Below, piece after piece: positions 10,807 to 37,430 of a stretch of DNA of 64,000 nt (position 1 is the stretch's first letter; each line of letters begins with the position of its first letter). The notes beneath the pieces were generated by a model. That model was not told the DNA's origin, did not search any database, and saw only the letters and a program-made list of their open reading frames with translations. The stretch comes from a bacterium. GTDB lineage: Bacteria; JAAXHH01. The stretch is from positions 2,616,701 to 2,680,700 of the forward strand of contig OZ245326.1 in the NCBI GenBank assembly GCA_965225915.1. Reading direction: 5' to 3'. The position numbers and the translations under genes were made by a program.

Positions 10807-11610
10807 TCAGTCCCGCTGCAGATGGCTGAATTCCGGTCTGGGGCCGCCCTTTTCCCGGTCCCACTGCCACAGTTCCGTGTAGGGAGACTGGACCTGGAAA
10901 CCGAATATGACCGGTCCGTCTTCGCCCGCCCGTTCGAGCACGTCGGGTCGGACCACGCGGGCCATTTCGTATTCGCACCTGGTCCATCGGCGACGCCACG
11001 GACTCAATACCGCGTAGCGCGGCCCTTCGGTCTGGTTCTTCGTCGTGCCGTGCCAGGTGTTGACGTCGAAGAGCACCAGCGAGCCTACAGGTGCGACGGC
11101 GGTCCGGGCGTTGTCATAGGCCGTTTCGGGGACGTCCAGATACTCGTACCGGTGGCTGCCGGGGACGAACTCGGTAGCGCCGTTGATCTCGGTGAAGGGA
11201 CTCAGGCAGAAGATCACGTTGAAGGCGATAGGATGGCTCGTGATCCGCCGGCTCTCGTCCGCTTCGGCCATGGAAGCTTCCCGGTTGTGACCGGTGATGC
11301 CGCTGTCGGAATGCAGCCCGCGCCCGCCCTCACCGGGCATCACCACCGATCCGTACACGGCGCTCAGAAGCGCGTCGGGGCCGAGAAAGTGTCGGACCAG
11401 GCGCAGCAGGTCGGGAAGCTGGTAGAACCGTTCAAAAACCCTCGCCTTGTTGAACAGCCATTCGAAGCCGCCCCGCTCCCTCTCGGGATAACGGGCCTCG
11501 AGTTCTCTGCGCGCCTCGGCGCATTCGTCCGGCGTCAACTGGCTGGACAGGATGGTAAATCCCTCGACCTTCAGGTCCAGCACATGGCCCTCGAATTCTT
11601 CCTTTGTCAT
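10807..11610 (-). CDS. PhyH-family Fe(II)/2OG dioxygenase
   Basis: GLHSDSG (HxD), PGSHRYEY and NTWHGTTKN. The 5' part of the listed 384-aa ORF is Arg/Gly-rich junk that overlaps the next gene, so the start is taken at MTKEEFEG (11610). Confidence 0.8.
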   Translation of the reverse strand: MTKEEFEGHVLDLKVEGFTILSSQLTPDECAEARRELEARYPERERGGFEWLFNKARVFERFYQLPDLLRLVRHFLGPDALLSAVYGSVVMPGEGGRGLHSDSGITGHNREASMAEADESRRITSHPIAFNVIFCLSPFTEINGATEFVPGSHRYEYLDVPETAYDNARTAVAPVGSLVLFDVNTWHGTTKNQTEGPRYAVLSPWRRRWTRCEYEMARVVRPDVLERAGEDGPVIFGFQVQSPYTELWQWDREKGGPRPEFSHLQRD

Positions 11611-11645
11611 GGTATGGATCGTCTTCCCATATGTTGTCGCGTGGC

Positions 11646-12461
11646 CTATCGTCCCGACAGGTCCTCGCCCAGGTCCGTCGCGTCCACCTTGCCCTTTTCC
11701 AGGCTCACGCCCACGACAAAAAGCTCCAGGTCCTCGTCCGTGTGGTTGAAGATCCCGTGAGCCCCGCCGAGCGGGTTGGGGATGGCGTCCCCGCGGACCA
11801 CTGCCTCGGTCTCGTCGTTTACTGTCATCCTGCCCCGGCCGTTCATGATCATGTAGGCTTCCTCCACGAGATCGTGCCGATGGTAGCCCACGGAAGTGCC
11901 GGGCGGCAGCAGGATGTGACAGAGATACTCGAAATTGGTTTGGAAATCCCGGCTTCCCCATACCTCCCGGAACAGCACTTCACCCCGGCCCTCATGGAGC
12001 CGGAGCGGCCTCAGCAGGGATCGGTCGAAACGTCCCACGGGCAGCCGGTCCGTGGACTCCAGGGCGACGTTTCTGCGCGGGTCGTTGAAATCCTCGTGCT
12101 TAGGTTCGCGGACTGTATCCACACAGTGGAAATTGAAGAACCAGGTATCCTGGTCCGTGTGGTTGTAGATGCCGTGGGACTCGCCTGATCGCAGGGGTAC
12201 CGCGGCGCCGCCCGTGACCTCGGCCGTGCGTCCGTTGTGGGTGAACTGCATGGCGTTGTCGATGCTGACGAAGATCTCTTCCGCGTAGGTGTGGCTGTGT
12301 TCACCGATGCCGCTGCCGGGCGGGAAGATCACGGAATGGATGAACCCCCAGGGAGACTTGAATGCCGTGGCGTCGAACCCGGGGTTGAAATAGCTCGCCG
12401 CGGCGCCGCCGTGGCTGACACCCAGGTGCATTTCTTCCCGTCTGGTATGGGATATCAACAT
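11646..12461 (-). CDS. bicupin protein
   Basis: Two cupin motifs (GIGEHSHTYAEEIFV and SVGYHRHDLVEEAYMIMNG). The ATG at 12461 has GGGAG 8 nt upstream. Confidence 0.6.
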   Translation of the reverse strand: MLISHTRREEMHLGVSHGGAAASYFNPGFDATAFKSPWGFIHSVIFPPGSGIGEHSHTYAEEIFVSIDNAMQFTHNGRTAEVTGGAAVPLRSGESHGIYNHTDQDTWFFNFHCVDTVREPKHEDFNDPRRNVALESTDRLPVGRFDRSLLRPLRLHEGRGEVLFREVWGSRDFQTNFEYLCHILLPPGTSVGYHRHDLVEEAYMIMNGRGRMTVNDETEAVVRGDAIPNPLGGAHGIFNHTDEDLELFVVGVSLEKGKVDATDLGEDLSGR

Positions 12462-12518: not shown

Positions 12519-13319
12519 CTACAGGGTGACTTCCTCAACGGCTTGCGTACCGGTCTCGTAAGCAGGCCGCCACCGGTCGTGGGCCATGGATTCTTCCTCG
12601 GTCAGACCGCACAGCCAGTTCCAGGTGTGTATACGTCGCCTCGTGTCCCGGTAGGATTCAACCCCGCTCGTGTAGGGAGCGGACGGGCGATCCCGGTACT
12701 CGGGGATTGCTTCCGAATCGATCAGCCAATCGCGCCGCGGCGGAGTGTTCCGGAAGTAGGAGAATTTGATCATGCTACGGGGCTTGTGATTGAGCTTCGG
12801 ACCGGCCCTGTGCCAGATGCCGTAGCGTGTAATGGCCACGGTGCCGGCCTTCACGACCAGCGAAAGCTGGCCCGTGAGATCGCCGTAGTGGGCCAGGGCG
12901 TCGCGGTTGACCGCCCGGCAGTGGGAACCGGGCAGGATCATGGTCGGGCCATCCTCGATCCCCACGTCCTGCGGATAGTAGTAGCACTGGAGTTCGTTGA
13001 TCTCGTAACCATGGCCGGATATACCGTCCGAATGCCAGTCCTGTCCCGAGACCGGCTCGTTCATGAGGTGGTGATGACCCCCCGTCGGCATCAGGAAATT
13101 GGGACCGAGCAGCGATCGTATCACGCCCGCCAACCGGGGATGGAGCAGGACTTCGCGGACGAAATCGGGAGAACCGACCAGTTCCTTCGCGGGGCCTACC
13201 TTGACGTTGCAGCACCGCTCGTTGAAATCGGGATCCACCATGGCTACGAGCACCGCGTATCCCTTGGCCACGAAATCCATCACGTCGTCATCGGTCATCG
13301 TCGGTCTGATCTCCGCCAT
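12519..13319 (-). CDS. PhyH-family Fe(II)/2OG dioxygenase
   Basis: DWHSDG (HxD), LPGSHCR and GIWHRAGPK. GGAGG lies 7 nt upstream of the ATG. Confidence 0.8.
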   Translation of the reverse strand: MAEIRPTMTDDDVMDFVAKGYAVLVAMVDPDFNERCCNVKVGPAKELVGSPDFVREVLLHPRLAGVIRSLLGPNFLMPTGGHHHLMNEPVSGQDWHSDGISGHGYEINELQCYYYPQDVGIEDGPTMILPGSHCRAVNRDALAHYGDLTGQLSLVVKAGTVAITRYGIWHRAGPKLNHKPRSMIKFSYFRNTPPRRDWLIDSEAIPEYRDRPSAPYTSGVESYRDTRRRIHTWNWLCGLTEEESMAHDRWRPAYETGTQAVEEVTL

Positions 13320-13331
13320 CGCATCGCCTCC

Positions 13332-13694: not shown

Positions 13695-13884
13695 GTCACA
13701 AGCCCTTGTGTATCAGTATATAGTCCGATAATTAAAAGTGTGAATGGTGTGTGGAATTCGGTATGCCTGACCGGGATTGTACAGGCGAAAAGGACACGTT
13801 GTCAAGCATGATCGAAGTTTGCCCGCTACCGGAATCCGGCATCCGCGGCAGGCTTGACAGCAGCGCCGCGGCCCCATATGTTCC

Positions 13885-14667
13885 ATGGACCTGAAACCCG
13901 GATTCCAGGATAGCCCAATGTCCGATTTGAAACCCTTGAACACCCAGCAGATCAACCAATTCAAGTTGAACGGCTACCTGGTTCTGGAGAACGTGTTCGA
14001 CGAAGAGACCGTCGAGGCCTGGCGCCGGCAAATCTGGCGGAAACTGAACAGTTCGCTGGAGGAACCTGAAACCTGGCCCAGGGAAACGAGCGGTCTGGAC
14101 GGGTATGAATATGATCCGCCCGATTCGGCCCTCGTGCACCATCCGTACATGATGGCGATCATGGACCAGTTCAGCGGCGGGACCTTCGTTGCCGGGGACG
14201 GCATTCCCATCATTCGCTGGCCGGAGCTGGAACGTACATGGCAAATGCCGAAAACAGGGCATATCGACGCCTACGGGGGACGCTGGCTGCCCTTCATGAT
14301 CGGCGCGACAACCTACCTGTACGACGTGGAACCCGGCGGCGGCGCTCTCATCTACTGGCCGGGAAGCCACTTTGCGGCCCACCGGTATTTTCTGGAACAT
14401 CCTTCGCAGGTGGACGGCAATTTTCTGGAGATCGAAGGTTTCTCGTGGGACGTATTCTGCGACAACCCGGCCACCGGCGGCCGGGAGTTTGCCGCGAAGG
14501 CCGGCGACTTGGTGCTGTGGCATTCCTACCTGACCCACAACGGTTCGGAAAACACGGGTACTATGCCGCGCATCGCCCTATTCGCCCGATGGAACCACGA
14601 AAGACACCTGGAGAAAGCCTTTCGCTACGAGATCCCCGATGATCTGTGGAAATACTGGGCGGTGTGA
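13885..14667 (+). CDS. PhyH-family Fe(II)/2OG dioxygenase
   Basis: GHIDAYGG (HxD), WPGSHF and YLTHNGSEN. An alternative start, MSDLKPL, lies at 13918. Confidence 0.8.
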   Translation: MDLKPGFQDSPMSDLKPLNTQQINQFKLNGYLVLENVFDEETVEAWRRQIWRKLNSSLEEPETWPRETSGLDGYEYDPPDSALVHHPYMMAIMDQFSGGTFVAGDGIPIIRWPELERTWQMPKTGHIDAYGGRWLPFMIGATTYLYDVEPGGGALIYWPGSHFAAHRYFLEHPSQVDGNFLEIEGFSWDVFCDNPATGGREFAAKAGDLVLWHSYLTHNGSENTGTMPRIALFARWNHERHLEKAFRYEIPDDLWKYWAV

Positions 14668-16543: not shown

Positions 16544-16589
16544 GTTTTGTACCCGCATTTTTTAATTCTAAAATGTTTATTAGCGTTCC

Positions 16590-17417
16590 ATGAACGAGAC
16601 CCCCCGTTACCTGTCCGGCGAACAACTGGATCAATTCTGGTCCGACGGCTACCTGGTGCTGAAGGGCACCCTGAACGCCGCTACCGTGGAAACCGCCCGC
16701 AACGCCATTCTTGACCTGATCCCCCGCGACCTTTCCCTGCCGGACCACTATATCGCGTACTGCGGCAGAATCAAGCCCATGCACACTGACGGAAACCACA
16801 GTTTCTACAGTCCGGCGCTGCTTCCCCTGCTTCAAAATGAAGGGCTCTACCGGGCCGCGGCCGATATCCTCGAAACCGACTGCATCCGGGTGGGAGACGG
16901 CTCCGTGGGGATTACCCTGCGTGATTCGGGGCGCGAAGGGCGCATTCAGAACCTGCACCTGGACGCGCGGCCGGGCGGACCGGAGGATCTGAACCGTCCA
17001 TTCCTGCGCCACGGGATCGGCATCGGCGGATGCTACTACCTGTCTCCCGTCGAAGAAAACGGCGGCGGCATCCACGTTATTCCCGGCGCGCCGAACAGGG
17101 TGAGGGACGTCATGCTCAACGAACCGGAAGGACTGTCGCGCAACGACACCTGGACCCACGTCGTCGATTTTCCGCCGTCGGTGGAGGTCAAAGGGGACGC
17201 CGGCGACTTCGTGCTCATGCACCACCTGATGCCCCACGCCGCCAGCGCCAACCACCGTAGTGTGCCCAGGGTCGCCCATTTCACCCGCCTGTATCCCCTG
17301 GAGGGCGAAGAGGCCCGTCTCGCCCCGGGACCCGACCGATCCATGAGTTCCGAAGCACTGGCCATGCTGACGCCACTGGGCCGCAAGTTGTTCCGTATGG
17401 ATCCCTGGATCGAGTAA
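16590..17417 (+). CDS. PhyH-family Fe(II)/2OG dioxygenase
   Basis: NLHLDARPG (HxD), a distal HLMPHAASAN, and the N-terminal QLDQFWSDGYLVLKG typical of PhyH. Confidence 0.75.
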   Translation: MNETPRYLSGEQLDQFWSDGYLVLKGTLNAATVETARNAILDLIPRDLSLPDHYIAYCGRIKPMHTDGNHSFYSPALLPLLQNEGLYRAAADILETDCIRVGDGSVGITLRDSGREGRIQNLHLDARPGGPEDLNRPFLRHGIGIGGCYYLSPVEENGGGIHVIPGAPNRVRDVMLNEPEGLSRNDTWTHVVDFPPSVEVKGDAGDFVLMHHLMPHAASANHRSVPRVAHFTRLYPLEGEEARLAPGPDRSMSSEALAMLTPLGRKLFRMDPWIE

Positions 17418-17423
17418 CATAAT

Positions 17424-19406
17424 GTGCCGCAACATGAACGGAGGTATTCCATTTCCCCGGAACCACCTCGAAACCGCGGATCAACGGCCGTAACCCTGCG
17501 GGCCGGGATCATCGGTCTAGGGCTTTCCGCCGTGGTGGCCGTCTGGGGACAGTTCGCCGCCGACCACGCCGGGTACAACTACGTCACCTACGCCCATCTG
17601 CCCTCGGCGCTGCTTATCCCCTTCCTCGTGCTGATCCTGGGACCCCACGTCCTGCTGAAGATCCTGGCGCCCAGGCACACCCTGACGACCCCCGAACTGG
17701 TCGTGGTTTTCGCCATGGGACTGATCGGTTCGATGGTACCCGACTGGGGCATGACGCGGTACCTGGTCTCCATCATCACCGGACCCTTCTATCACGCCAG
17801 TCCCGAAATCCGCTGGGCGGAAACCTTCTTCGACACGCTGCCCGCGTGGCTGGTGATCAGCGACAAAACCGACGCGGTACGGATTTTCTACGAGGGGGCC
17901 GGCCCCGGGTACGACATCCCGTGGATGGCCTGGATCTCGCCCCTGCTGTGGTGGATGTCGTGTTTTGCCGCCCTCATGTGGACCGGCGCGTGCATCGTGG
18001 TCATCCTGAGGAAGCAGTGGGTCAGCCACGAAAGGCTGCGTTTCCCCCTGGGCGAGGTGGCGCTCAACCTGATGGGTCTGCAAAAGGACGAAGACAGGCC
18101 GCCCATGGTCCGCACGAACGCCTTCCGGATCGGCGTCGTCCTGTCGCTGACCGTCGTTCTTTGGAATATCGTTTCCTACTGGGGCTTTGTTTCACCGATT
18201 CCCATCATGGGACCGGACCTGGTGTACGTGAAGGTGCACCCGTCGATCCCCGATCTTCCCATCAGGCTGAATGTCTTCGTGCTCTGTTTCGCCTTTTTTG
18301 TCAATGCCGAGATCCTGTTCAGCCTTTGCTTCTTCCTCCTGCTCACGACGCTGCAACGCGGCGTACTGAACATGCTCGGGGTTACGGCGGCGACGACGAT
18401 GTCGCCCACCGGACTGGTGGGCACGCAGTCCATCGGCGCCCTGATCGCCCTGGTGGTTTGGGGACTCTGGATGGCCCGGCGTCACCTGGCCGCCGTGGGC
18501 AGGCGGGCGTTCCGGAAGGATACGGCAGTGGATGACCGGGAGGAGTTCTTCTCCTACCGAACAGCGGTGTTCGGAATGATCTTCGGATTGATCTACCTGC
18601 TGGGTTGGCTCTACAGCATCGGCATGTCGCTGCCGGTCAGCCTGGCCCTGCTCGCCGTCCTCTTCATCGTATACCTCGGCATGGCCAGGATCGTCGCCGA
18701 GGCGGGCCTCGTCGCCATGGACCTGCCGGTGAACGCCAACGTCTTTACCGCGGGCATCATCGGCGCCGACAACCTCAACTCTTCCACCATCACCGCCCTG
18801 GGCATGACGAACGCCTTTGCGCGGAACTGGCGGACTTTCACGATGATCGGGCTGTCCCACACCGCGTATCTCCAGCGCTGGATGCAGCCGGCCACCCGGC
18901 ACCTCTTCCTGTGGATCTGCCTGTCCTTCGCCGTGAGCGTCGTCGCTTCGCTGTATTATTACATCAGCGCGGGTTACGCCGTGGGCGCCGACAACCTGCT
19001 ATCCAAGCCCGGCGATCTCGTGCCGTTCTTCTACAATACCATCATGCAGTGGAACAGCAGCGCGAGTAGTGTTTCGGGACTTGAACTGGTATTTTTCGGC
19101 AACGGCGTCGCCCTGTACATGCTGATGATCCTGGGGCGCTTCCTCTTTCTCTGGTGGCCGCTGCATCCCATCGGACTCGTCGCCGTGGCCGCGGACACCG
19201 TCCGGTTCATGTTCCTGCCGTTCCTGCTGGCCTGGCTCATCCAGGTGATCCTGCTGCGCCTGGGCGGGGGAGCGCTGTACCGCAAGGCGCAACCCCTCTT
19301 CCTCGGCATCCTGGTGGGCTACGTCGTGGGCATGGCGCTATCGTTCCTGGTGGACAGCCTCTGGTTTCCGGCGACGCCCCACCAATTCGAATCCTTCATC
19401 AACTGA
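17424..19406 (+). CDS. polytopic membrane protein of unknown family (paralogue A), candidate transporter
   Basis: At least 12 hydrophobic segments. It shares LRKQWVxHERLxFPL, NAxARNWRT and WWxLHPIG blocks with the protein at 23306-25300. The GTG start lies 7 bp after the preceding stop. Confidence 0.75.
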   Translation: MPQHERRYSISPEPPRNRGSTAVTLRAGIIGLGLSAVVAVWGQFAADHAGYNYVTYAHLPSALLIPFLVLILGPHVLLKILAPRHTLTTPELVVVFAMGLIGSMVPDWGMTRYLVSIITGPFYHASPEIRWAETFFDTLPAWLVISDKTDAVRIFYEGAGPGYDIPWMAWISPLLWWMSCFAALMWTGACIVVILRKQWVSHERLRFPLGEVALNLMGLQKDEDRPPMVRTNAFRIGVVLSLTVVLWNIVSYWGFVSPIPIMGPDLVYVKVHPSIPDLPIRLNVFVLCFAFFVNAEILFSLCFFLLLTTLQRGVLNMLGVTAATTMSPTGLVGTQSIGALIALVVWGLWMARRHLAAVGRRAFRKDTAVDDREEFFSYRTAVFGMIFGLIYLLGWLYSIGMSLPVSLALLAVLFIVYLGMARIVAEAGLVAMDLPVNANVFTAGIIGADNLNSSTITALGMTNAFARNWRTFTMIGLSHTAYLQRWMQPATRHLFLWICLSFAVSVVASLYYYISAGYAVGADNLLSKPGDLVPFFYNTIMQWNSSASSVSGLELVFFGNGVALYMLMILGRFLFLWWPLHPIGLVAVAADTVRFMFLPFLLAWLIQVILLRLGGGALYRKAQPLFLGILVGYVVGMALSFLVDSLWFPATPHQFESFIN

Positions 19407-19467: not shown

Positions 19468-20829
19468 ATGACAGGTACCAAACGCCCCAACCTGTTGTTC
19501 ATCATGGATGACCAGCACCGCCACGACTACCTGTCCGCGGCAGGCGCATCATTTCTAAATACGCCGAACCTGGACCGGCTCTCGCAACGCGGGATCCGCT
19601 TCACGCAATGCATCACCAACGCCCCGGTGTGCGCGCCCGCGCGCATTGGCCTGGCCAGCGGATACCAGCCGGCGCGGCTGGGTTGCCTGGACAACAATTG
19701 CTACCTTCCCCGGCACATCACGCCCTATTACGCCCGCCTGCGGGATGCGGGGTACCGCGTAGGCTGCGTGGGTAAACTCGATCTCGCCAAGCCGGATCCC
19801 TACAACGGCCTTCACGGCGATCGTCCCCGGGTTTTCGGATGGGGATTTACCCATCCCGTGGAGTGCGAGGGCAAGATGCACGCCGGCATGGCGGACGAAC
19901 CCCGGGGACCGTACGGATTCTGGCTGCGGAATCAGGATCTCTTCGAAGGCTTCAGGGCGGACTACGCGGCGCGGGGAGCGAAGGGATGGATCGAAGGCGC
20001 GTCCCACGACTCGGTCCTGCCCCTCGAGGCCTTCGAGGACATTTACATCGGACGTCGCGCCGTCGATTGGATCGAAGCCGTGCCGGACGACTACCCCTGG
20101 CACCTGTTTGTGAGTTTCGTAGGTCCCCACGACCCCTTCGATCCACCCGCGGCTTACGCCGACCGTTACCGGGACGCGGAGGTGCCGCCTGCCGTGCGCA
20201 GCGCGAGAGAAGGGAAACCGGACTGGGTCAACGCGCGGCGTCGCGACCTGTCCGACGATGAGGTCGCGGTCACCCGTCGCCAGTACTGCGCCGCCATTGA
20301 ACTCATCGACGACCAGGTGGGCCGGATCATCGAGGCTGTCGAGCGGCGGGGCATGGGAGAGGACACCTATATTGTTTTTGCCAGCGACCACGGGGAGATG
20401 CTGGGCGATCACGGCATGTACACCAAGTCCCTGCCCTACGAGGCGGCCCTGCGTGTGCCCCTGATCGCCGCCGGACCGGGCATACCGGGCGGGCGGACCT
20501 CCGACGCTCTCGTGGAACTGATCGACGCCAACCCCACCCTGTGCGCCCTGGCTGAACTGCCGGCCCAGGACGGCCTCGACGCGATAGACTTCGGCGCCGT
20601 GCTCACCGGGGAACGGTCTACCCACCGGGAGGAAGGAGCCAGCGCGCTGCGTCAGTTCAGGCTGGTCCGTACGGCGGAATACAAGCTGGTCTCACACGAG
20701 ACGGGCGAGACGGAACTATACGATCTGCAGAATGATCCCGAAGAAAGGGATAACGTGGCGGCGGACCGTTTGGATTCGGTAAGGGAGCTCAGGAGGCGGC
20801 TGCGCCGCCGGTTTCACTTCCCGCCCTGA
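19468..20829 (+). CDS. sulfatase (formylglycine type), no signal peptide
   Basis: NLLFIMDDQHR metal-site start and the CAPAR (CxPxR) formylglycine motif followed by IGLASG. The rest has the sulfatase core layout. Confidence 0.9.
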   Translation: MTGTKRPNLLFIMDDQHRHDYLSAAGASFLNTPNLDRLSQRGIRFTQCITNAPVCAPARIGLASGYQPARLGCLDNNCYLPRHITPYYARLRDAGYRVGCVGKLDLAKPDPYNGLHGDRPRVFGWGFTHPVECEGKMHAGMADEPRGPYGFWLRNQDLFEGFRADYAARGAKGWIEGASHDSVLPLEAFEDIYIGRRAVDWIEAVPDDYPWHLFVSFVGPHDPFDPPAAYADRYRDAEVPPAVRSAREGKPDWVNARRRDLSDDEVAVTRRQYCAAIELIDDQVGRIIEAVERRGMGEDTYIVFASDHGEMLGDHGMYTKSLPYEAALRVPLIAAGPGIPGGRTSDALVELIDANPTLCALAELPAQDGLDAIDFGAVLTGERSTHREEGASALRQFRLVRTAEYKLVSHETGETELYDLQNDPEERDNVAADRLDSVRELRRRLRRRFHFPP

Positions 20830-21671
20830 CCGCTTGCAGCACCGCTGTAAGGCGCCCCGGAAGGCGCGGCGTGTTGGGGAGAGACGATCTTCCTGCGATC
20901 GGGCGTCAGGCGGTCCAGCAATTCGGGTGACGGCTGGTACCCGTGGCGGAAGTTGCCCCAGGACGGTCCGTACCGGTAGACCACGATACGCCGCGTTCCC
21001 GCGTTTCGGCGGGTGGCCGAACCGTGGGAAATGCCATCCACGAACAGCAGGGCGTCGCCGGCTTCCATGAACAATTCGACGGAAGCGGTGATGCCTTCCA
21101 CGGAGGCCCCCTTCGGCTTCATGGCGTGGCGGGCGTATTCGGGATGGATGAAGTTGGACTTGTGGCTACCGGGAATGACCATGGTGGCGCCGTCCCCCGG
21201 ACCGATGTCGGTCAGGGCGATCAGCACGTTGATCTGTCCGCACATGAACCGGCCGCCATCGTAGCGGAATCCATTGCGCATGATCCGCGGGAATCCCCCG
21301 GAATGCAGTCCGATCGCCTCGCCCGGTTCCCGGAAATTGGCGAGGTTTTCGTCGATGAACAGCGGTCCGTGGCTGTAGTCGAACGTCCCTTCCCCGCCCA
21401 CGAAGTGCTTTAGCTTATCGATCCAGGATGGATGATCGATCAGGGCTTCAAAGGGGGCGCCCGCCTCGTAAATCTGTTGCAGGTTCAGTCCGTCCACGGT
21501 GCCATAGGTATGGGCATGAACGCAACCGTGCCATTCGCCGGGCGACAGGGGCGGGATTTCGTCCAGGCAGGCGTTCAGTTCAGTCACCTCTGCCCCGGTC
21601 AGGGCCTGCTTCATGTGGATGAAGCCCTGCAGGTCGAAGAGGTAGATATCCAGGTCGTCGGGTTTGCTCAT
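20814..21671 (-). CDS. PhyH-family 2OG oxygenase-like protein with HxG instead of HxD (candidate halogenase)
   Basis: GLHSGGF: H123 is encoded at 21303-21305 and G125 at 21297-21299. VIPGSHKSN and the distal GISHGSATRR are retained. Its 3' end overlaps the sulfatase 3' end by 16 bp. Confidence 0.7.
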   Translation of the reverse strand: MSKPDDLDIYLFDLQGFIHMKQALTGAEVTELNACLDEIPPLSPGEWHGCVHAHTYGTVDGLNLQQIYEAGAPFEALIDHPSWIDKLKHFVGGEGTFDYSHGPLFIDENLANFREPGEAIGLHSGGFPRIMRNGFRYDGGRFMCGQINVLIALTDIGPGDGATMVIPGSHKSNFIHPEYARHAMKPKGASVEGITASVELFMEAGDALLFVDGISHGSATRRNAGTRRIVVYRYGPSWGNFRHGYQPSPELLDRLTPDRRKIVSPQHAAPSGAPYSGAASGQGGK

Positions 21672-21857: not shown

Positions 21858-23228
21858 ATGAAGGCCGTTTCAACGCCCAATATTCTGATCGTGCTGAGTG
21901 ACCAGCTGCGTCGCCAGGCCCTGTCCACCTACGGCGATCCCAACATCGTTACGCCCCACGTAGACGCCCTGGCCGACCGGGGCGTGCGCTTCGAAAACGC
22001 CAGTTCGACCTGCCCCATCTGCGTCCCCTTCCGCTTTTCCTTCATGACGGGCCTGTACGCCCATGACCGGAAGGTCCCGGGGATCGAGTACAGGATGTCT
22101 CCTGCTGAGCGGACCCTTGCGGACGAATTCAACGAGGCGGGGTACGAGACGATATACACGGGGAAATGGCACCTGGACGGCGGTCACGGCCGCATGGGGT
22201 CGGCCCGCCAGTGCGGGCGGACGCCCGTAAAGAAAGCCTACCGGGGCCGCTGGGAGAAATGGCTGGGTTTCGAGCTCAGGAACGGTCCCTTCGATACGTT
22301 TTATTTCGAGGACGACGACCCGACGCCTCGACCGATCGAAGGGTACCAGACCGACGGTCTTTTCGATCTGGCCATGGACAACCTGGAACACCGGGACCCG
22401 TCCCGGCCCTTCTGCATGGTGATCTCCGTCGAGCCGCCCCACGATCCCTTCGAAGCGCCGGAAGCCCTGCAACGCACCTGGGAGGCGATGGACATCGTAC
22501 TGCCTCCCAACGTCGAGGCGGCCGCCTCCGAAGACTTGGAACGGATCATGCTCAACCGGAAGCGTTACTACGCCATGGTGGAGAACCTGGACTGGAACAT
22601 GGGGCGACTTGGCGCTTTTCTGTTACGGACCGGACTCCAGGATGACACCGTTGTCCTGTTTCTTTCTGATCACGGCGAACTCGGCGGTGCCCACGGACTA
22701 CGGGGAAAGCAGTGGCCTTACGAGGAGTCGACGGGCATTCCCCTGATCGTGGTGGACCCCAGGTGGCCGGAGCGGGCGGGCGACACGATCCAGGATCCGG
22801 TCTGCACCGAGGATCTGTTCCCCACCATCCTGGGTTTGGCTGGAGTGAAGTCGAAAGACGACCTACCGGGTACCGACCTCACCCCGCTGATCCACGGCGA
22901 CGTCGATCATTTGAAAAGGGAAGGCGTGATGCTCGAATTCGTGGCGGAGTTGAGGCAGGGCATGGCCTTCTACGAATGGGTATGGCGCGGATTCCGGACC
23001 GCCCGGTACAAGTACACCGTTCGCGGGGACAACCACGGCGGCGGCCCGTGGCAGTTTTTCGACCTGGCGAATGATCCCTGGGAACAGCGGAATCTCCTGG
23101 ACGATCCCGCGTACCGGGAAGAAATCATACGGCACCATGACCTCCTTTTGCACAGGATGAAGGAAACGGAAGACCACTTCGTACTCCTTCCGGCATTCGG
23201 CCGGAAAGGGTTGAACACCTGGGATTAG
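21858..23228 (+). CDS. sulfatase (formylglycine type), no signal peptide
   Basis: NILIVLSDQLR start and the CVPFR (CxPxR) motif followed by FSFMTG. Confidence 0.9.
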   Translation: MKAVSTPNILIVLSDQLRRQALSTYGDPNIVTPHVDALADRGVRFENASSTCPICVPFRFSFMTGLYAHDRKVPGIEYRMSPAERTLADEFNEAGYETIYTGKWHLDGGHGRMGSARQCGRTPVKKAYRGRWEKWLGFELRNGPFDTFYFEDDDPTPRPIEGYQTDGLFDLAMDNLEHRDPSRPFCMVISVEPPHDPFEAPEALQRTWEAMDIVLPPNVEAAASEDLERIMLNRKRYYAMVENLDWNMGRLGAFLLRTGLQDDTVVLFLSDHGELGGAHGLRGKQWPYEESTGIPLIVVDPRWPERAGDTIQDPVCTEDLFPTILGLAGVKSKDDLPGTDLTPLIHGDVDHLKREGVMLEFVAELRQGMAFYEWVWRGFRTARYKYTVRGDNHGGGPWQFFDLANDPWEQRNLLDDPAYREEIIRHHDLLLHRMKETEDHFVLLPAFGRKGLNTWD

Positions 23229-23305: not shown

Positions 23306-25300
23306 ATGTCCCTTTCCAGCACGACATCCGCGCAGACCGGTAGAGATGAAAGCGGAGGATCCGGGGCGACCCTCACGTCGGGTATGACAAAAAAGGCGCT
23401 GTTTATCGGCGTCGTCATGTCCGTCCTCCTGAATATCTGGACGCTCCATGCAGCGTATGTCACCGGGTCGTCCTATATCAGCCTGACCCATCTGCCCGTC
23501 GCCGCGTTGTTCCCCTTCATGCTGGTCCTGCTGGTCTTCAATCCCCTGATGAAGTTCTTCTGGCCGGCCTGGGTCCTGAACCGGTATGAACTCATTGTCG
23601 TTTTCTTCCTGGTCTTCACGGCTTCGACCATTCCCGCCTGGCCCTTCAGTTCCTACTGGATTTCGGCCATCACCGCGCCCCACTACTATGCCACGACGGA
23701 GAACCAGTGGGCGGAACTGTTCTTCCAGTACCTGCCTTCATGGCTCATCGTTTCCAACGAGCAGCAGGCCATATCCTGGTTTTTCGAGGGCGTGCCGGAA
23801 AGCAGACCCTCTATCCTTGGGCTGTTACGCAACACCTGGTCGATACCGCTCTTCTGGTGGATCACTTTTTTTCTGGCGATCTTCGTCGTCGGCGCGTCGG
23901 CCATGGTCATGCTTCGGAAACAATGGGTGGAACACGAAAGGCTGACCTTTCCGCTGGCGCAGATCCCGTTGATCCTGATCGAGGAAGGGACGGGCCGCCG
24001 GGCCCTGCCCGCCGTGATGCAGTCGAAACTGTTCTGGTACGCCTTCGGCCTAACGCTGTTCATTTTCCTTTGGAATATCGTGGGATTCTTCAACTGGGTC
24101 AGTTCGATCCCCATCGGTCCCCTGCACAACTTCACCCTGGTCCTGGCCCGGTCTTTTCCGGCCATACCCATCCGGTTCAATTTCCTGGTGGCCGGGGTCG
24201 GGTACTTCACCAACCTCAACGTCCTGTTCAGCATATGGGTCTTCTTCGTTATCATGATCATACAGCAGGGCATCATGATCCGTCTCGGCGTACCCAAGGC
24301 TTTCGCGGTCGTCAAGTCGCAGCATTCCGGGGGGTTTCTCATCTTCTCCCTTTTCGCCCTCTGGACCGCGCGGCGGCATCTGAAGGACGTGTTTATGAAG
24401 GCGATTGGAAGAGCCCCCCATGTGGACGATTCGAAGGAGTTCTTCTCCTATCGCATGGCCATGCTGGGCGTGCTTGGGGGCGTAACGTATATCGTCTGCT
24501 GGCTGTACGCTTCGGGAATGTCCCTGGGCATCATCGTCTTCATGATGGGGTCGTTGTTGATCATGTTCGTTGGTGTGACCCGCATCGTGGCGGAAACGGG
24601 CATCGTTTTCCTGGATCTGCCCTTCGAGACCCATGATTTCACCGTCGCCGTCATCGGGTCCGGCAGCATTGGTACGCGGGACCTGACCAACCTGGCCATC
24701 GGCAACGCCTACGCACGCAATTGGCGGACCCTCGGCATGTGTTCCATGGGACACATCGCCAAGGTGGACGATGAAATGGGGGGAACGGGAAAAGGGGCGT
24801 TCCGTGCGATCACCGGGGTGCTCGCCCTTAGCATCATCGTGGCGGTGGCGTACACCGTGTACCTGGGATATACCCACAGCGGGGCGTCGAACTTTCTTGA
24901 GCCCGCCTTCAACACGGGAAGCAAGCTGCCCTACGACAATCTCGTGAGATGGATCAGCAACGAACAGGCGATCACGGGAATGGAATTCTGGTTCATGGCT
25001 TTCGGTGGTGTGGTTACCGCGCTGTTGATCCAGGCCCACCATCGATTCACCTGGTGGTCGCTCCATCCCATCGGGTTCGCTGTGGTCATGACGCCGGGCA
25101 TGGTCAGTTCCGTGTTTTCAATCTTCGTGGTCTGGTTCGTAAAAGCCCTGTTGCTCAGGGTGGGGGGCATCCAGCTGTACCGGAATGGCATACCCGCCGT
25201 CCTGGGTATGCTGGTCGCCTTCGTGCTCGGCGTATTCCTGTCTTACGTGGCGGACTGGATCTGGTTTCCGCAGGCCGGCCATCCAGTACAGACCTGGTGA
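23306..25300 (+). CDS. polytopic membrane protein of unknown family (paralogue B), candidate transporter
   Basis: Colinear with the protein at 17424-19406 over its full length, by eye roughly one third identical. Confidence 0.75.
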   Translation: MSLSSTTSAQTGRDESGGSGATLTSGMTKKALFIGVVMSVLLNIWTLHAAYVTGSSYISLTHLPVAALFPFMLVLLVFNPLMKFFWPAWVLNRYELIVVFFLVFTASTIPAWPFSSYWISAITAPHYYATTENQWAELFFQYLPSWLIVSNEQQAISWFFEGVPESRPSILGLLRNTWSIPLFWWITFFLAIFVVGASAMVMLRKQWVEHERLTFPLAQIPLILIEEGTGRRALPAVMQSKLFWYAFGLTLFIFLWNIVGFFNWVSSIPIGPLHNFTLVLARSFPAIPIRFNFLVAGVGYFTNLNVLFSIWVFFVIMIIQQGIMIRLGVPKAFAVVKSQHSGGFLIFSLFALWTARRHLKDVFMKAIGRAPHVDDSKEFFSYRMAMLGVLGGVTYIVCWLYASGMSLGIIVFMMGSLLIMFVGVTRIVAETGIVFLDLPFETHDFTVAVIGSGSIGTRDLTNLAIGNAYARNWRTLGMCSMGHIAKVDDEMGGTGKGAFRAITGVLALSIIVAVAYTVYLGYTHSGASNFLEPAFNTGSKLPYDNLVRWISNEQAITGMEFWFMAFGGVVTALLIQAHHRFTWWSLHPIGFAVVMTPGMVSSVFSIFVVWFVKALLLRVGGIQLYRNGIPAVLGMLVAFVLGVFLSYVADWIWFPQAGHPVQTW

Positions 25301-25785: not shown

Positions 25786-27426
25786 CTAAGACCTTCGGAC
25801 CTTTCGCTGCCTTCTTCCGTAGGAGGGCTTGCTGACCTCTGCTACCGGCCCGGAACCGTCGTTGGTATTCGAATCCTCCTTGCGGGCATCCGTAATCCTT
25901 GCGGGGCCGTCCGACGGCGTGGCCACGGCATCGGGTACTTCCCGTGCTGCTGGAGCGGTTTTCGGTTGGACTTTGCGATTATTCCTATTCCTGGCCGACG
26001 GCGTTTTAGTCACGGCATCGGGTACTTCCCGTGCTGCTGGAGCCGTTTCCGGTTGGACGGGGGCCGGGTCTGCCTGCTCAGGCAACCTGTCCTGTCGCGC
26101 GGCCTTCTCTTTGTCGTTGCCGTTCCTGCCTGTCTTGTTCTCGTGACCTTTACCGTTCGTGGTGACCCGGCTGTCATTTACGTCGCCGTTCTCCTTGGCT
26201 GACTCTTCCAGGTTGCTGTCGTCGCGCGCAGGGTCCGCGGCGCCGTTCGACCGCTGGCGCGTGCCTCGCCGGCTCCCGGTCTGCCGGGACCTGCCCGATG
26301 AGCGCTGCGATCGGCTCGAGCCGGATTTTCGGGATGACCGGGATGCGGGTTGTTCCGCTTCGGCCGCCACTGTCTCGCCGCCGGTGTCGCCGTTGGCCGC
26401 GGGGGGCAGGGAACGATAATTTAGCCGACCGGTAGCGGTGGGTTGCGATTTAATCTTGCTGATCAACCGCTTGGGAAACACCATGCGCGCGGTGATGAGC
26501 GGGTTCCCCCACTGGCTGACGTGGAGTCCGCCGCCAAGGCTGACCAGCGCGTAGGCCGTATCGTAATCCAGGGCCTTGTCGTGTGAGATCCATTTCACCA
26601 TCTCGGTTATCGCCAAGCGCGCCGCCTGGTCGACCGTGGACGCGGACGTGATGGTGATCCATTCGCCCTTCGATTCGACCCGGGGCCAGGAAAACCGGCC
26701 ACCGGGCAACGTGTCCAACCTCAGGGTGACCTCCGCCTCGACTTCCACGCCCGATCCGGCAATCTGGCCGTCGCCCACGCAGGCCTTGACATCGCCCAGC
26801 GACAGCAGGGCGCCGTTGACCTGAACGGGCAGGAAGATCTTGGATCCGGTCGTGATTTCCAGGGTGTCCATGTTTCCGCCGTGCCTGCCCGGGTAAACGG
26901 TATCGATCTCCCCATGCTTCGCGGCCACGCCCATGATCCCTATCACCGGGTGCACCGGTAGATTCAGCCGGTCGTCCAGCTGGACCTGTTTGTCGTTAAC
27001 TTCCAGTATCCGCACCTTCGTGTCCTGGATCTCCTGCCCGGGGATGCCCGTTTCCGGCCGCACGGCGAACACGCCGGTACCCGCCGGTTTGATCTGCTTC
27101 ACCTGAATGGACAGGACATCGCCGATGTGGGCTTCATCCACGTAAATGGGACCTGTTACCGGTATTCCGCCGGATTGTTCGACGTTACGATGCGTTTCGG
27201 GTTCTGCCGTGAGAAGGCCCCGGTAGCAGTCCTGCGTTTCCACGACGATGGTCTCGCCGCGGCTGACGGTGATGGCCGGAGAGACGTTCGGGCTGAATAC
27301 CTGGTGAACCCGGTCCTTGGATATCCGTCTTGTCGGCCCTTCGCTTTCTTTCTTGTCGCTTTCTTTCTTGGATGATCTGCGTAACAAAATATGCGTTACC
27401 TCTCTTGGATGCGTTGGAAAATCCAA
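25786..27426 (-). CDS. acetamidase/formamidase-family amidase with ~215-aa disordered basic C-terminal extension
   Basis: The FmdA/AmdA-like core spans about aa 40-330 (GPIYVDEAHIGDVL, GGNMD, GDVKACVGDGQIAGSG). The tail is rich in R, S, G, N, P and D. The TTG start at 27426 is uncertain. Confidence 0.75.
   Translation of the reverse strand: MDFPTHPREVTHILLRRSSKKESDKKESEGPTRRISKDRVHQVFSPNVSPAITVSRGETIVVETQDCYRGLLTAEPETHRNVEQSGGIPVTGPIYVDEAHIGDVLSIQVKQIKPAGTGVFAVRPETGIPGQEIQDTKVRILEVNDKQVQLDDRLNLPVHPVIGIMGVAAKHGEIDTVYPGRHGGNMDTLEITTGSKIFLPVQVNGALLSLGDVKACVGDGQIAGSGVEVEAEVTLRLDTLPGGRFSWPRVESKGEWITITSASTVDQAARLAITEMVKWISHDKALDYDTAYALVSLGGGLHVSQWGNPLITARMVFPKRLISKIKSQPTATGRLNYRSLPPAANGDTGGETVAAEAEQPASRSSRKSGSSRSQRSSGRSRQTGSRRGTRQRSNGAADPARDDSNLEESAKENGDVNDSRVTTNGKGHENKTGRNGNDKEKAARQDRLPEQADPAPVQPETAPAAREVPDAVTKTPSARNRNNRKVQPKTAPAAREVPDAVATPSDGPARITDARKEDSNTNDGSGPVAEVSKPSYGRRQRKVRRS
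25924..26057. repeat. two imperfect 47-bp direct repeats (period 87 bp) inside the amidase tail
   Basis: The core cacggcatcgggtacttcccgtgctgctggagc is identical at 25924-25956 and 26011-26043. The repeats encode PxTAPAAREVPDAV twice. Confidence 0.9.
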
Positions 27427-28516: not shown

Positions 28517-30289
28517 CTAGTGACCGAATGCAGCGCCCTCGATCCGGGGGTCCGGCGCCCCCAGGCGGTAGCCGGTGTCGGGGTCCACCATGATACTGTG
28601 GCCATCTCCCTGGCGGTAGGAACCGCCCCCGAAACCCCGGCTGCTCAGCTCATGACCCTTGGCCTGCAAAGTTTCCGCAGTCTCGCGTCCCACTCCGTTC
28701 TCGGCTCGGAGACGGTCCGGGAACCACTGGTGGTGGATTCGCGGTGCGTCGACTGCTTCCTGGATATTCATGCCATGGTCGATGACGTTCAGGATCAACT
28801 GCATTGTCGTATTGATGATCGTGCGTCCCCCGGGACTGCCCACCACCAGGTACAGGTCGCCGTTCCGCGTGACGATGGTCGGGGACATAGAACTCAACAT
28901 GCGTTTGTTCGGTTCGATGAGATTCGGCTCCGTTCCAATCTGTCCGGTGGATCTTGTTATTCCCGGCTGCGGATTGAAGTCGCCCATCTCGTTGTTGGTG
29001 ATCATGCCCGTTCCCGCGATGACTATATGGGACCCGTATCCACCTTCCAGCGTGTAGGTGTTTGAAACGGCGTTGCCCCACTGGTCGGCGACGGAGTAAT
29101 GGGTGGTCTGAACACTTTCCGCGGGCAAGGTCAATTCCGGTCCCACCTCTTCGCTCGGCGTGGCGAAGAAGGGATCGATAGTGGACCGTAGCTTGGCCGC
29201 GTATTCCTTCGTCGTGAGATGTTCCGGAATCTCGACGAAGTCCGCGTCGCCAAGGTGCCGGGCCCGGTCGGCGTAGGCTCGGCGCATTGCCTCGGTCATG
29301 ACGTGAAGGGTGTTGGATGAATTATGCCCCATCCGGCCCAGGTCGTAGCCTTCGAGTATGTTGACCATCAACGACATGGTAATGCCGCCCGAACTCGGCG
29401 GCGGCATGGATATGATCTCGTATTCATCTCTGTACGTAGTGCGGACGGGTTCCCGGATGATCGCCTGGTAGTTCGCAAGGTCGGTGCGGTCGATCATCCC
29501 GCCCCCGGCCTTCATGTCCTTTTCGATCAATTCGGCGGTTCTGCCCTTGTAGAACCCGTCGTGGCCGTCCCTGGCGATAAGCTTCAGGGTTTCCGCCAGG
29601 TCTTTCTGTATCCAACGATCGCCTGCCTGCCAATCCTCTCCGTCCGCCCGCAGCATGGCCTTCTTGCTCGCGGGAATCTGGTTGAAGATGGCTGTGCGGC
29701 TGTTTAATCCCCGGGCGATGCGCTCTGTCAGTATAATGCCCTGTTCCGCGAGATTGATGGCGGGCTGGATGACTTCCGCCATGGACATGGTGCCGTATTT
29801 CTCCAGGGCCAGGGCGAATCCGGCCACGGTCCCCGGCACGCCGATAGCCAGGTGATGAATGCGGTTGGTAGGGGGGTGGTAGGTTGAACCGTTGCCTCGG
29901 GTGAGGGTGATGTTCGGGTTCACGGCGCGGTTGCCGTCATCATCCAGGTACATCCCGGCATGCGCTTTTCCCGGCGCTTTTTCCCGATAGTCAACTGCCA
30001 CGGCCGTGCCGTCGGCCATGCGAATAACCATGAAGCCGCCACCGCCGATATTCCCGGCGGAGGGATGGGTAACCGCCAGGGCCAATCCCAGCGCCACGGC
30101 GGCGTCGACGGCGTTTCCGCCGTTCTTAAGAATGTCCGCGGCGATTTTCGTGGCCATGGGTTCCACGGCCACCGCCATGCCCTTTTTGCCGACTACAGGT
30201 TTGCGGGACGCCGCAACCGCATCGTGGACAGCTATAGACGACAGAATCAGGCCGCACACCGCGACAAGAATTTTCAATCGATGCATCAT
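28517..30289 (-). CDS. ggt: gamma-glutamyltranspeptidase, secreted
   Basis: Signal peptide MMHRLKILVAVCGLILSSIAV. THPSAGNIGGGGFMVI and the autoprocessing site TTHYSVAD are both present. Confidence 0.9.
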   Translation of the reverse strand: MMHRLKILVAVCGLILSSIAVHDAVAASRKPVVGKKGMAVAVEPMATKIAADILKNGGNAVDAAVALGLALAVTHPSAGNIGGGGFMVIRMADGTAVAVDYREKAPGKAHAGMYLDDDGNRAVNPNITLTRGNGSTYHPPTNRIHHLAIGVPGTVAGFALALEKYGTMSMAEVIQPAINLAEQGIILTERIARGLNSRTAIFNQIPASKKAMLRADGEDWQAGDRWIQKDLAETLKLIARDGHDGFYKGRTAELIEKDMKAGGGMIDRTDLANYQAIIREPVRTTYRDEYEIISMPPPSSGGITMSLMVNILEGYDLGRMGHNSSNTLHVMTEAMRRAYADRARHLGDADFVEIPEHLTTKEYAAKLRSTIDPFFATPSEEVGPELTLPAESVQTTHYSVADQWGNAVSNTYTLEGGYGSHIVIAGTGMITNNEMGDFNPQPGITRSTGQIGTEPNLIEPNKRMLSSMSPTIVTRNGDLYLVVGSPGGRTIINTTMQLILNVIDHGMNIQEAVDAPRIHHQWFPDRLRAENGVGRETAETLQAKGHELSSRGFGGGSYRQGDGHSIMVDPDTGYRLGAPDPRIEGAAFGH

Positions 30290-32219: not shown

Positions 32220-33152
32220 TTAGGGCACGTAGGGCGATCCCGTTCGACGCAGTTCCTTCGTTACCGCCAGTTGACAGGTGACGTAGGCATTCCCGTCCAC
32301 GTTGCCGCGCCGGTTCATCAGGCCGGCGGCGTAGCCCGGACGGGCGTCGGCGATGGTGCCGACGATAAGGTTGGCGTATTCCACGGTGGTGTCGTAACGG
32401 TCCGCGATGAGGGCGTTCATTTCGCTCCAGGCGATCTTCACGGCCTCTTCCCAGTTGTAACCCTGGCCGCTGGTCAGGTATTCTTCCTGGGACTCCACGA
32501 TCCGGGTCTTCTCCACGACCGGACTGCTGCAGGGGAAACCCGGTGAGCGATCCACCCGCATGGTGATCGTGGAATCGATTTCGACTCCAGTACCCGTCAG
32601 CTCGCCGTCTCCCATGCGCGCGTGTACATCTCCCAGCGAGAGCAGCCCCCCGGGTTTCTGCGCACGGATGTGCACCGTGCTTCCCGGTTGAATCCCGTTA
32701 AAGTCCATGTTGCCGCCGGTATCGATCTGGTGGAGAGCCACGGACTCCAGCTGCACGACGCCGATCATGGGGCGAACAGGTACAACGAAATCGGGTGGAA
32801 AATGTACGAGGCCGTCCCTTACCGGTGCTATGAGCCGGAGGCTACCCCAGTGGGGGCCGCCGTTTCGGTAGAATCCATAGGCGCCGACTTCCATGTCGAG
32901 GATCTCCACGGACACCCAGTCTCCGGCCTCGATCCCCTCGATGCAGAAGGGACCGCACGGGCGTGAAAACCGGTAGGGATCCACGTCCATGACCGCCCCG
33001 GCCCGCAGGTCTTTCTTGGCAAGGTAATCCTGGTCATGCCCACCAAATGTTTCGACCTGGACCGTTTCACCGGGTTCGAGTACACCGCGGGTTTCACGGA
33101 ATGTCGGATCGTCCGGTCCGGAGAGATAGGGCGTGCGGGTAAACCGTCGCAT
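32220..33152 (-). CDS. acetamidase/formamidase-family amidase
   Basis: GPFCIEGIEAGDWV, GGNMDFN and GDVHARMGDGELTGTG blocks parallel the amidase at 25786-27426. Confidence 0.8.
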   Translation of the reverse strand: MRRFTRTPYLSGPDDPTFRETRGVLEPGETVQVETFGGHDQDYLAKKDLRAGAVMDVDPYRFSRPCGPFCIEGIEAGDWVSVEILDMEVGAYGFYRNGGPHWGSLRLIAPVRDGLVHFPPDFVVPVRPMIGVVQLESVALHQIDTGGNMDFNGIQPGSTVHIRAQKPGGLLSLGDVHARMGDGELTGTGVEIDSTITMRVDRSPGFPCSSPVVEKTRIVESQEEYLTSGQGYNWEEAVKIAWSEMNALIADRYDTTVEYANLIVGTIADARPGYAAGLMNRRGNVDGNAYVTCQLAVTKELRRTGSPYVP

Positions 33153-36661: not shown

Positions 36662-37426
36662 ATGAAGTATCCCAATCCGTTAAAGCAGCGCATCCGTGGC
36701 GGCGCCCTGCTGCTGGGCACGGTGCTGCCCGCGCCTACCTCGTTCACCGCCGCGGCCGTCTCCGGTGCCGATATCGATTTCATGTGGATCGATACCGAAC
36801 ATTCCTCCTTCGGCATAGAAGACCTCGACATGGTTCCGGTGATCGCCCGACAGCGGGGCGTCGCGCCCATGATACGCGTCGCCTCGAACGATCCCGCGCT
36901 GATCAAGAAGGCCTACGACATCGGGGCCGTGGCGGTCATGGTCCCCCAGGTCAATACGGTCGAAGAGGCGGAAAGGGCCGTCCGGTATGCCCGTTACGCT
37001 CCCGAGGGACAGCGGGGCATTTCTCCCTACTGGGCGATGCTGGCGGACCTGGATTTCAACGAGGTAATCCGAACGGCCAACGAAGAGACCGTGCTCGTGC
37101 TCCAGATCGAGAGCAAGGAAGCCTACGACAACCTCGACGATATCGCGCGGGTCGAAGGTATCGACGTGCTCTTCGTCGGTCCCACGGATCTTTCCGCCAC
37201 GCTGGGCGTGATAACGCAGAACGATTCCCCCGAGGTGCAATCCGTCCTCCGCGACGTGCCGAAGCGCCTGGAAGGCACCGGGATCATGGCGGGGACGACG
37301 CTGGACGACGTAAAGGATATACAGGAGAAAATCGAGTGGGGTTACCGCTACATCAACGTCGGTACGCCCATGGGCTACGGCTTGCGCGTCCTGCAGCAAA
37401 ACCTGAATACACTGCGGAGTGGATGA
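36662..37426 (+). CDS. HpcH/HpaI-family 2-keto-3-deoxy-acid aldolase
   Basis: FMWIDTEHSSF, VMVPQVNTVEEAERAV and PEGQRGISP are typical of HpcH/HpaI aldolases. Confidence 0.85.
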   Translation: MKYPNPLKQRIRGGALLLGTVLPAPTSFTAAAVSGADIDFMWIDTEHSSFGIEDLDMVPVIARQRGVAPMIRVASNDPALIKKAYDIGAVAVMVPQVNTVEEAERAVRYARYAPEGQRGISPYWAMLADLDFNEVIRTANEETVLVLQIESKEAYDNLDDIARVEGIDVLFVGPTDLSATLGVITQNDSPEVQSVLRDVPKRLEGTGIMAGTTLDDVKDIQEKIEWGYRYINVGTPMGYGLRVLQQNLNTLRSG

Positions 37427-37430
37427 CAGG

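Follow-up and report, generated by a model that had tools for sequence, protein, structure and literature searches.

Does a PhyH-family protein with glycine in place of the usual iron-binding acid belong among the halogenases, or can it still assemble a complete iron site? The question is raised by a gene, here called P0001, on the minus strand of a 64,000-nucleotide stretch of a bacterial genome (contig OZ245326.1 of assembly GCA_965225915.1, positions 2,616,701 to 2,680,700; hereafter the window). A sequence-only reading of the window had proposed that P0001 encodes a possible 2-oxoglutarate (2OG)-dependent halogenase and had listed, as one alternative, an enzyme that takes its carboxylate from elsewhere. 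Our analyses favor that alternative: an aspartate, D212, that lies four residues ahead of the distal His aligns to the metal-binding Glu of the solved oxygenase HygX. From these comparisons we predict, with good confidence, that P0001 is an active cytoplasmic Fe(II)/2OG oxygenase whose iron site has been rebuilt in the fashion of HygX.

The P0001 protein and its active-site motifs

The reading frame of P0001 is open and encodes 285 amino acids, as had been claimed. Its product matches the PhyH model PF05721 over residues 12 to 228 with an E-value of 4.4e-17 and 63.5 bits (cut-off 22), and no N-terminal signal-like segment was seen in the printed sequence. An AlphaFold2 model built from a diverse alignment of 42 sequences reached a predicted local distance difference test score (pLDDT) of 91.1 and a predicted template modeling score of 0.89. 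It has the PhyH-type double-stranded β-helix fold, with PhyH-fold matches at Z 21 to 25 in VIA. An earlier model, based on 25 close homologues, was discarded (pLDDT 67.5, with residues 122 to 133 below 50). Judged by the Pfam match and the predicted fold, P0001 is most likely a PF05721 PhyH-fold Fe(II)/2OG oxygenase. The gene and its key positions are as follows.

20814..21671, minus strand: P0001, oxygenase gene (open reading frame; PF05721 E 4.4e-17; AlphaFold2 pLDDT 91.1; best fold match HygX)
21297..21305, minus strand: H123-S124-G125, proximal His and the Gly in the usual Asp/Glu place (codons CAT TCC GGG; aligned to H-G-G of HygX)
21228..21230, minus strand: N148, aligned to Lys137 of HygX (profile alignment, HygX residues counted)
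21024..21038, minus strand: D212-G-I-S-H216, proposed relocated carboxylate and distal His (codons, HygX alignment, conservation and covariation)
20991..20993, minus strand: R227 (distal His +11), presumed binder of the 2OG C5 carboxylate (conservation and its presumed human PHYH counterpart)

The codons for His123 (CAT, 21303-21305) and Gly125 (GGG, 21297-21299) lie where the sequence-only reading had placed them, with Ser124 (TCC) at 21300-21302 between them, and the protein keeps the VIPGSH block, the distal His216 (in GISHGS) and R227/R228 that it had noted. Below, His+2 denotes the position two residues after the proximal His, and His-4 the fourth position ahead of the distal His.

Relatives of P0001 are numerous. 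A word-indexed search gave 2900 at E <= 0.001 among 4173 candidates, the best 120 of which are 68-88% identical to P0001, and 1246 of the 50%-identity representatives matched at E <= 0.001 when these were searched exhaustively. The sources named for the close relatives include Latescibacteria, Gemmatimonadetes, Zixibacteria, Handelsmanbacteria, Chloroflexota and Anaerolineae, among others, and the clade extends at 66-88% identity across metagenome-assembled genomes labeled Latescibacterota, Gemmatimonadota, Chloroflexota, Poribacteria and others.

Within this clade the active-site residues hardly vary. H123, S124, G125, D212, H216, R227 and R228 are all invariant in 25 homologues at 66-88% identity, and among the best 120 relatives HxG is present in every one (120/120) and the combined motif HxG..DxxxH in 119. 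Its invariance in the homologues shows that HxG is fixed in a protein under strong constraint and is neither an error nor the mark of a decaying gene. Farther out, at 31-61% identity, HxG is found in 16 of 17 relatives, the remaining one having HGS, and all 17 carry D/E-x3-H, with Asp at His-4 in 11 and Glu in six. Among the 150 listed 50%-identity representatives, 109 are fragments missing one or both motifs. The 41 that span both comprise 30 with HxG and either Asp or Glu at His-4, two with both acids, one with HxD and Gly at His-4, and otherwise single oddities.

Human PHYH (PDB 2A1X) and the ectoine hydroxylase EctD (PDB 3EMR), both members of PF05721, have two His ligands and a 2OG Arg, as does P0001. 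We take R227 to be the counterpart of the 2OG-binding Arg of human PHYH; it is invariant in the 25 close homologues, the 17 distant relatives and the 12 PhyH paralogues of the window, and Arg occupies this position in 108 of 113 PhyH paralogues of the genome. Human PHYH, EctD and PHYHD1/FJS (2'-O-methyl-nucleoside demethylases, likened to P0001 by description) all carry an HxD triad, whereas in P0001 the acid appears to have moved.

Relationship to HygX and covariation of the two acidic positions

HygX is an Fe(II)/2OG oxygenase of Streptomyces hygroscopicus that forms the orthoester of hygromycin B (PDB 4XC9, 4XCA, 4XCB and 4ZPI). By sequence it is the closest solved relative of P0001: the E-value was 2.3e-11 in a phmmer search with P0001 alone, 1.2e-16 with a profile of close homologues (profile A1) and, over the full length, 3e-30 with a profile of 17 relatives (profile A2). 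Profile A2 scored human PHYH at 2.5e-14, EctD at 8.4e-14, CytC3 at 1.1e-4 and SyrB2 at 1.7e-4. Structural comparison pointed the same way. A Foldseek search with the P0001 model placed HygX chains first (E 1.2e-18, TM-scores 0.67/0.73), and VIA-align gave HygX a Z of 25.4, with a root mean square deviation of 2.6 Å over 217 residues, followed among other proteins by TlxI at Z 23.5.

In a 2026 review of orthoester biosynthesis, the facial triad of HygX is given as H-X-G...E-X3-H, the acid having been relocated and replaced in its former position by Gly, with Lys137 occupying the gap that the Gly leaves (PMC13374393). The same source has HygX acting on a glycoside and active in vitro. In the open-access papers and bioRxiv preprints searched, we found such a relocated triad described only for HygX. 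P0001 resembles HygX in its PhyH-type fold, its H-x-G first motif, an acid precisely at His-4 and the retained Arg after the distal His. In the full-length HMMER alignment, LHSGG of P0001 falls on LHGGN of HygX and the D/E-x3-HG block on NEALMHG, so that D212 is paired with the HygX Glu and H216 with the distal His of HygX; the match of D212 with this Glu recurred in three separate alignments. The two proteins also differ. Their identity is only about 20-23%, and P0001 is about 27 residues longer, with an insert at 90-102 that is modeled with low confidence. HygX, AviO1 and EvdO1/2 form a group of orthosomycin orthoester synthases with an orthosomycin or aminoglycoside biosynthetic-cluster context, which the neighbors of P0001 do not share.

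The genome that contains P0001 allowed the fate of the acid to be followed among its own paralogues. The genome is a single 3.70-Mb contig with 111 PF05721 matches, 12 of them inside the window. All 11 HxD motifs that the sequence-only reading had listed were located in open frames of the window, these 11 frames all match PF05721, and an alignment of the 12 proteins has Asp at His+2 in 11. A hidden Markov model built from the 12 window paralogues recovered 113 paralogue reading frames, of which 99 have HxD, unlike P0001 with its Gly125; two in which the distal His did not align were dropped, leaving 111.

The acid at His+2 is absent in 13 of these 111 aligned paralogues, and all 13 have Asp or Glu at His-4, Glu in 12 and Asp in P0001 alone. 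An acid at His-4 is found in only three of the 98 HxD paralogues (Fisher p 1.9e-14), although the 13 variants share one clade, so the p value overstates their independence and the pattern corresponds to only about two independent swap events. In a FastTree phylogeny of the 111 paralogues, the 13 fall in a clade of 15 with support of 0.946. The other two members, both outside the window, are nested within this HxG/E-x3-H clade and have HRD at the first motif together with Thr at His-4.

C1:315557-316630 of the genome, plus strand: HRD/Thr paralogue
C1:3185531-3186553 of the genome, plus strand: HRD/Thr paralogue

By its sequence, this pair has undergone a natural back-swap, the carboxylate returning to His+2. 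Two or more coupled changes, running in opposite directions, are what would be expected if exactly one carboxylate must stay, and the covariation of loss at His+2 with gain at His-4 argues that one carboxylate is always retained.

Three HxD paralogues are acidic at both positions, with Asp at His-4 in the sequence DLLLH or DRLLH.

39818-40648 of the window, plus strand: HxD with Asp at His-4
C1:3120360-3121289 of the genome, minus strand: HxD with Asp at His-4
C1:2393637-2394344 of the genome, minus strand: HxD with Asp at His-4

The expansion of PhyH genes in this genome is extreme. A comparable abundance is described for Poribacteria, in which the PhyH domain occurs in >1.9% of genes (PMC3909097). 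Five PhyH genes of the window (about 60% GC) are masked by longer shadow reading frames on the opposite strand if frames are picked by length alone; they emerged from a check of motifs and Pfam matches in all six frames.

10810-11979, minus strand: shadow-masked PhyH gene
12522-13331, minus strand: shadow-masked PhyH gene
13858-14664, plus strand: shadow-masked PhyH gene
16584-17414, plus strand: shadow-masked PhyH gene
37407-38201, plus strand: shadow-masked PhyH gene

Taken with the HygX alignment, P0001 most likely has a HygX-type relocated triad, H-x-G...D-x3-H, with D212 as a predicted ligand. In such a site H123 and H216 would be the two His ligands of the iron and G125 would stand where the usual Asp or Glu at His+2 would be. 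D212, four residues ahead of the distal His, would supply the carboxylate, and R227 would bind 2OG; we infer the coordination of iron by D212. A full facial triad of this kind would leave no vacant site for a halide, so oxygen-transfer or other oxidative chemistry would be expected rather than halogenation, with hydroxylation, or a reaction of the oxidative cyclization or dealkylation type, as the outcome.

Gene neighborhood and substrate class

P0001 lies between two sulfatase genes, as had been stated, and this sulfatase-oxygenase-sulfatase unit is bracketed by genes for two paralogous DUF6785/DUF6784 membrane proteins. That the latter are transporters is only a guess.

17424..19406, plus strand: membrane protein of 660 amino acids, upstream of sulfatase A (DUF6785, PF20581, E 3.7e-103; DUF6784, PF20580, E 6e-18)
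19468..20829, plus strand: sulfatase A, 453 amino acids, with a C-x-P-x-R motif (PF00884, E 5.1e-40)
21858..23228, plus strand: sulfatase B, 456 amino acids (PF00884, E 1.6e-46)
23306..25300, plus strand: membrane protein of 664 amino acids, DUF6785/DUF6784, downstream of sulfatase B (PF20581, E 1.5e-103)

Sulfatase A is convergent with P0001, their 3' ends overlapping by 16 bp, and matches arylsulfatase and choline-sulfatase models under their cut-offs. Sulfatase B is divergent from P0001 across a spacer of 186 bp. The other neighbors of P0001 in the window are further PhyH genes. No signal peptide was obvious in the printed sequences of either sulfatase; this, together with its apparent lack in the oxygenase, suggests that these enzymes act in the cytoplasm on an imported small molecule.

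We compared this arrangement with the best 80 of 216 stretches containing relatives of P0001 in species-representative genomes, calling neighbors by phmmer with a panel of proteins at E <= 1e-15 and scanning 54 reading frames from six of the loci with Pfam. The sulfatase and DUF6785 arrangement is kept in 19 of the 80 loci (L001-L018 and L028; 79-94% identity), and the Pfam scans of L001 and L003 show the same arrangement. A sulfatase gene lies within 400 bp of the oxygenase gene in 22 of the 80. Other partners recur as well: an enolase-superfamily gene <=400 bp upstream in 24 loci, overlapping by 4 bp in most and nearest to arabinonate and galactonate dehydratases, though under their cut-offs; RmlA directly downstream in 28, over the cut-off of the RmlA model; and a 2-hydroxyacid dehydrogenase gene within a few kb in 29. 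In three Chloroflexota loci a ceramidase-N-like gene and a gene for an apiosidase-like (PF13204) glycosidase adjoin the oxygenase gene, and two of these three also have a sugar ATP-binding cassette (ABC) binding-protein gene.

Sugar-directed chemistry occurs in the PF05721 family, since one report has PF05721 enzymes, including one from Poribacteria, demethylating 2'-O-methyl ribose (PMC12709175). Because the gene contexts concern sugars, sugar acids and sulfate esters, and because HygX and the PF05721 demethylases act on sugars, the substrate of P0001 may be a small sugar-derived molecule such as a sulfated sugar, a sugar acid or similar. A carbohydrate substrate is established for HygX; for P0001 it is suggested by gene context alone, and this is the weakest part of our reading, to which we give about an even chance. 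The setting would be the cytoplasm, in glycan or organosulfate catabolism. We found no literature linking phytanoyl-CoA dioxygenase with sulfatase in sponge symbionts.

Elsewhere in the window, genes for a HlyD-type adaptor and two adjacent AcrB-type resistance-nodulation-division (RND) transporters follow one another. At 1257 amino acids, one of the RND genes is unusually long, and only residues 679-1254 are covered by the best of its three matched stretches. Two genes of the acetamidase/formamidase family and genes for a gamma-glutamyltranspeptidase, aminotransferases and amidohydrolases are interspersed among the PhyH genes, a mixture that suggests that the same region serves the catabolism of nitrogen-containing small molecules.

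61136-62236, minus strand: HlyD-type adaptor gene, preceding the RND genes
57344-61117 and 54017-57280, minus strand: RND genes, AcrB-type
25786-27426, 32220-33152 and 28517-30289, minus strand: acetamidase/formamidase and gamma-glutamyltranspeptidase genes

Alternative explanations and significance

Besides the shared ancestry of the variant paralogues, several observations weigh against an iron site of the HygX type in P0001 or against the role we suggest for it. The assignment of D212 as a ligand comes from alignment and covariation only. The relocated acid is Glu in HygX and in 12 paralogues of the genome, whereas P0001 has the shorter Asp. The gap-filling Lys137 of HygX corresponds to Asn148 in P0001, a position that is Asn in 170 of the 212 sequences covering it, Asp in 12 and Lys in four. 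By structure, the lead of HygX over PhyH-fold enzymes with a canonical triad is only about 2 Z units, many of these enzymes scoring at Z 21-23. One close homologue of the 120, P0048, keeps HSG and has Ala at position 212; it would then have a carboxylate in neither place, and may represent either an error or a genuine two-His variant. Finally, gene context varies by lineage, with 17 of the 80 loci lacking any panel gene, and in the window P0001 is on the strand opposite to both sulfatases.

Some of these observations bear on a second explanation, in which P0001 is a two-His iron enzyme with D212 in the second sphere and with water, or a carboxylate or sulfate of the substrate, in the third position, giving substrate-gated or atypical chemistry. 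Compared with the Glu of HygX and of the 12 variant paralogues, Asp is shorter by one methylene, the local environment differs from that of HygX given Asn (or, in 12/212, Asp) at the Lys137 position, and the gene context suggests anionic sugar substrates that could provide such a group. This explanation keeps some weight because of the shorter Asp and the replacement of Lys137 by Asn, but we consider it unlikely. D212 is essentially invariant (119/120) and shares its column with the ligand Glu, the D-type and E-type proteins grade into one another within a single family, and Gly213 could, we infer, let the backbone move closer to the iron.

The halogenase proposal, in which a free-standing Fe(II)/2OG enzyme would bind chloride or bromide at a site opened by G125 while D212 would be no metal ligand, fares worse still. 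WelO5 and BesD-type halogenases have an HxG motif, and the invariant HxG of the P0001 clade, H123-S124-G125 in P0001 itself, does place Gly at His+2, where halogenases have Ala or Gly. The two halogenases covered by our comparison, SyrB2 and CytC3 (PDB 2FCT and 3GJA), share the fold group of P0001, and in them too a small residue replaces the His+2 carboxylate; the Ala of SyrB2 is visible in the alignment as WHQ followed by an inserted stretch starting with A. The sequence-only reading had placed SyrB2-type enzymes in the PhyH-like fold group, and a match of SyrB2 to a PhyH paralogue of the window at E 6.7e-15 bears this out. The homologue P0048, with Ala at position 212, also fits a site free of protein carboxylate.

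Alignment with these halogenases, a comparison that the sequence-only reading had suggested, nevertheless went against its proposal. In a PDB search with the HxD paralogue at 39818-40648, His-4 was Ser in both SyrB2 and CytC3 (FWSTLMH and FWSNTMH); the column of the metal-binding acid of HygX therefore holds Asp in P0001 and Ser in two genuine PhyH-fold halogenases. We found no paper dealing with Ser231 of SyrB2. A halogenase should also have no protein carboxylate for its iron, and the alignment and covariation indicate that P0001 probably has one, the loss of acid at His+2 being matched by its gain at His-4. Profile A2, with SyrB2 at 1.7e-4 and CytC3 at 1.1e-4 against 3e-30 for HygX, sets P0001 far closer to the latter. 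Against the chlorinating-enzyme model TIGR01762, P0001 scores 15.1 bits with a cut-off of 226.3, and none of the genome's reading frames reaches that value: of 17 matches at E <= 1e-5, the best has 67.5 bits. There is no halogenase among the 50 entries listed by VIA or among the Foldseek matches listed, an absence that applies to these listed matches only. SyrB2 and CytC3 act on amino acids tethered to a carrier protein, and no carrier protein or biosynthetic-cluster context was seen in the window or in the Pfam-scanned related loci. With an acid at the HygX Glu column and so low a TIGR01762 score, the evidence does not support the proposal, and we judge it very improbable that P0001 is a halogenase. 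The best TIGR01762 match of the genome, at 67.5 bits and under the cut-off, is the window paralogue at 39818-40648 (plus strand).

It is scarcely credible that P0001 has the PhyH fold but no catalysis, whether as a dead enzyme or as a non-enzymatic protein such as a binding protein: it lacks the canonical HxD, but the two His residues, D212 and the 2OG Arg have been kept across phyla at 66-88% identity, which would be unexpected for a dead enzyme, and HygX, with the same type of motif, is reported to be active in vitro (PMC13374393).

It is conceivable, although we think it rather doubtful, that the altered geometry of the Asp-type H-x-G...D-x3-H clade steers the ferryl intermediate from simple hydroxylation toward a HygX-like oxidative making or breaking of C-O bonds in sulfated or acidic sugars, or that the shorter Asp leaves an anion site for a halide or for a sulfate or carboxylate of the substrate. 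If either version is true, the marine catabolism of glycans or organosulfates would gain a new reaction.

In genome mining, a proximal His that belongs to an HxG or HxA motif is widely taken as a quick flag of a 2OG halogenase. In the PhyH fold the HxG flag misleads unless the His-4 position is checked as well: in this one genome 13 of 111 aligned PhyH paralogues lack the His+2 acid, and each has a compensating acid. HygX provides the precedent for the relocated triad. The breadth of this triad, in a large conserved environmental clade with Asp for Glu, and the natural back-swap appear to be new, and weak evidence from open-access papers and bioRxiv suggests that the clade of P0001 has so far gone undescribed. 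The relocated triad would span a very large, well-conserved environmental clade tied to sulfatase and sugar-acid genes, and the natural swap and back-swap would offer a ready-made set of variants for relating ligand placement to ferryl reactivity.

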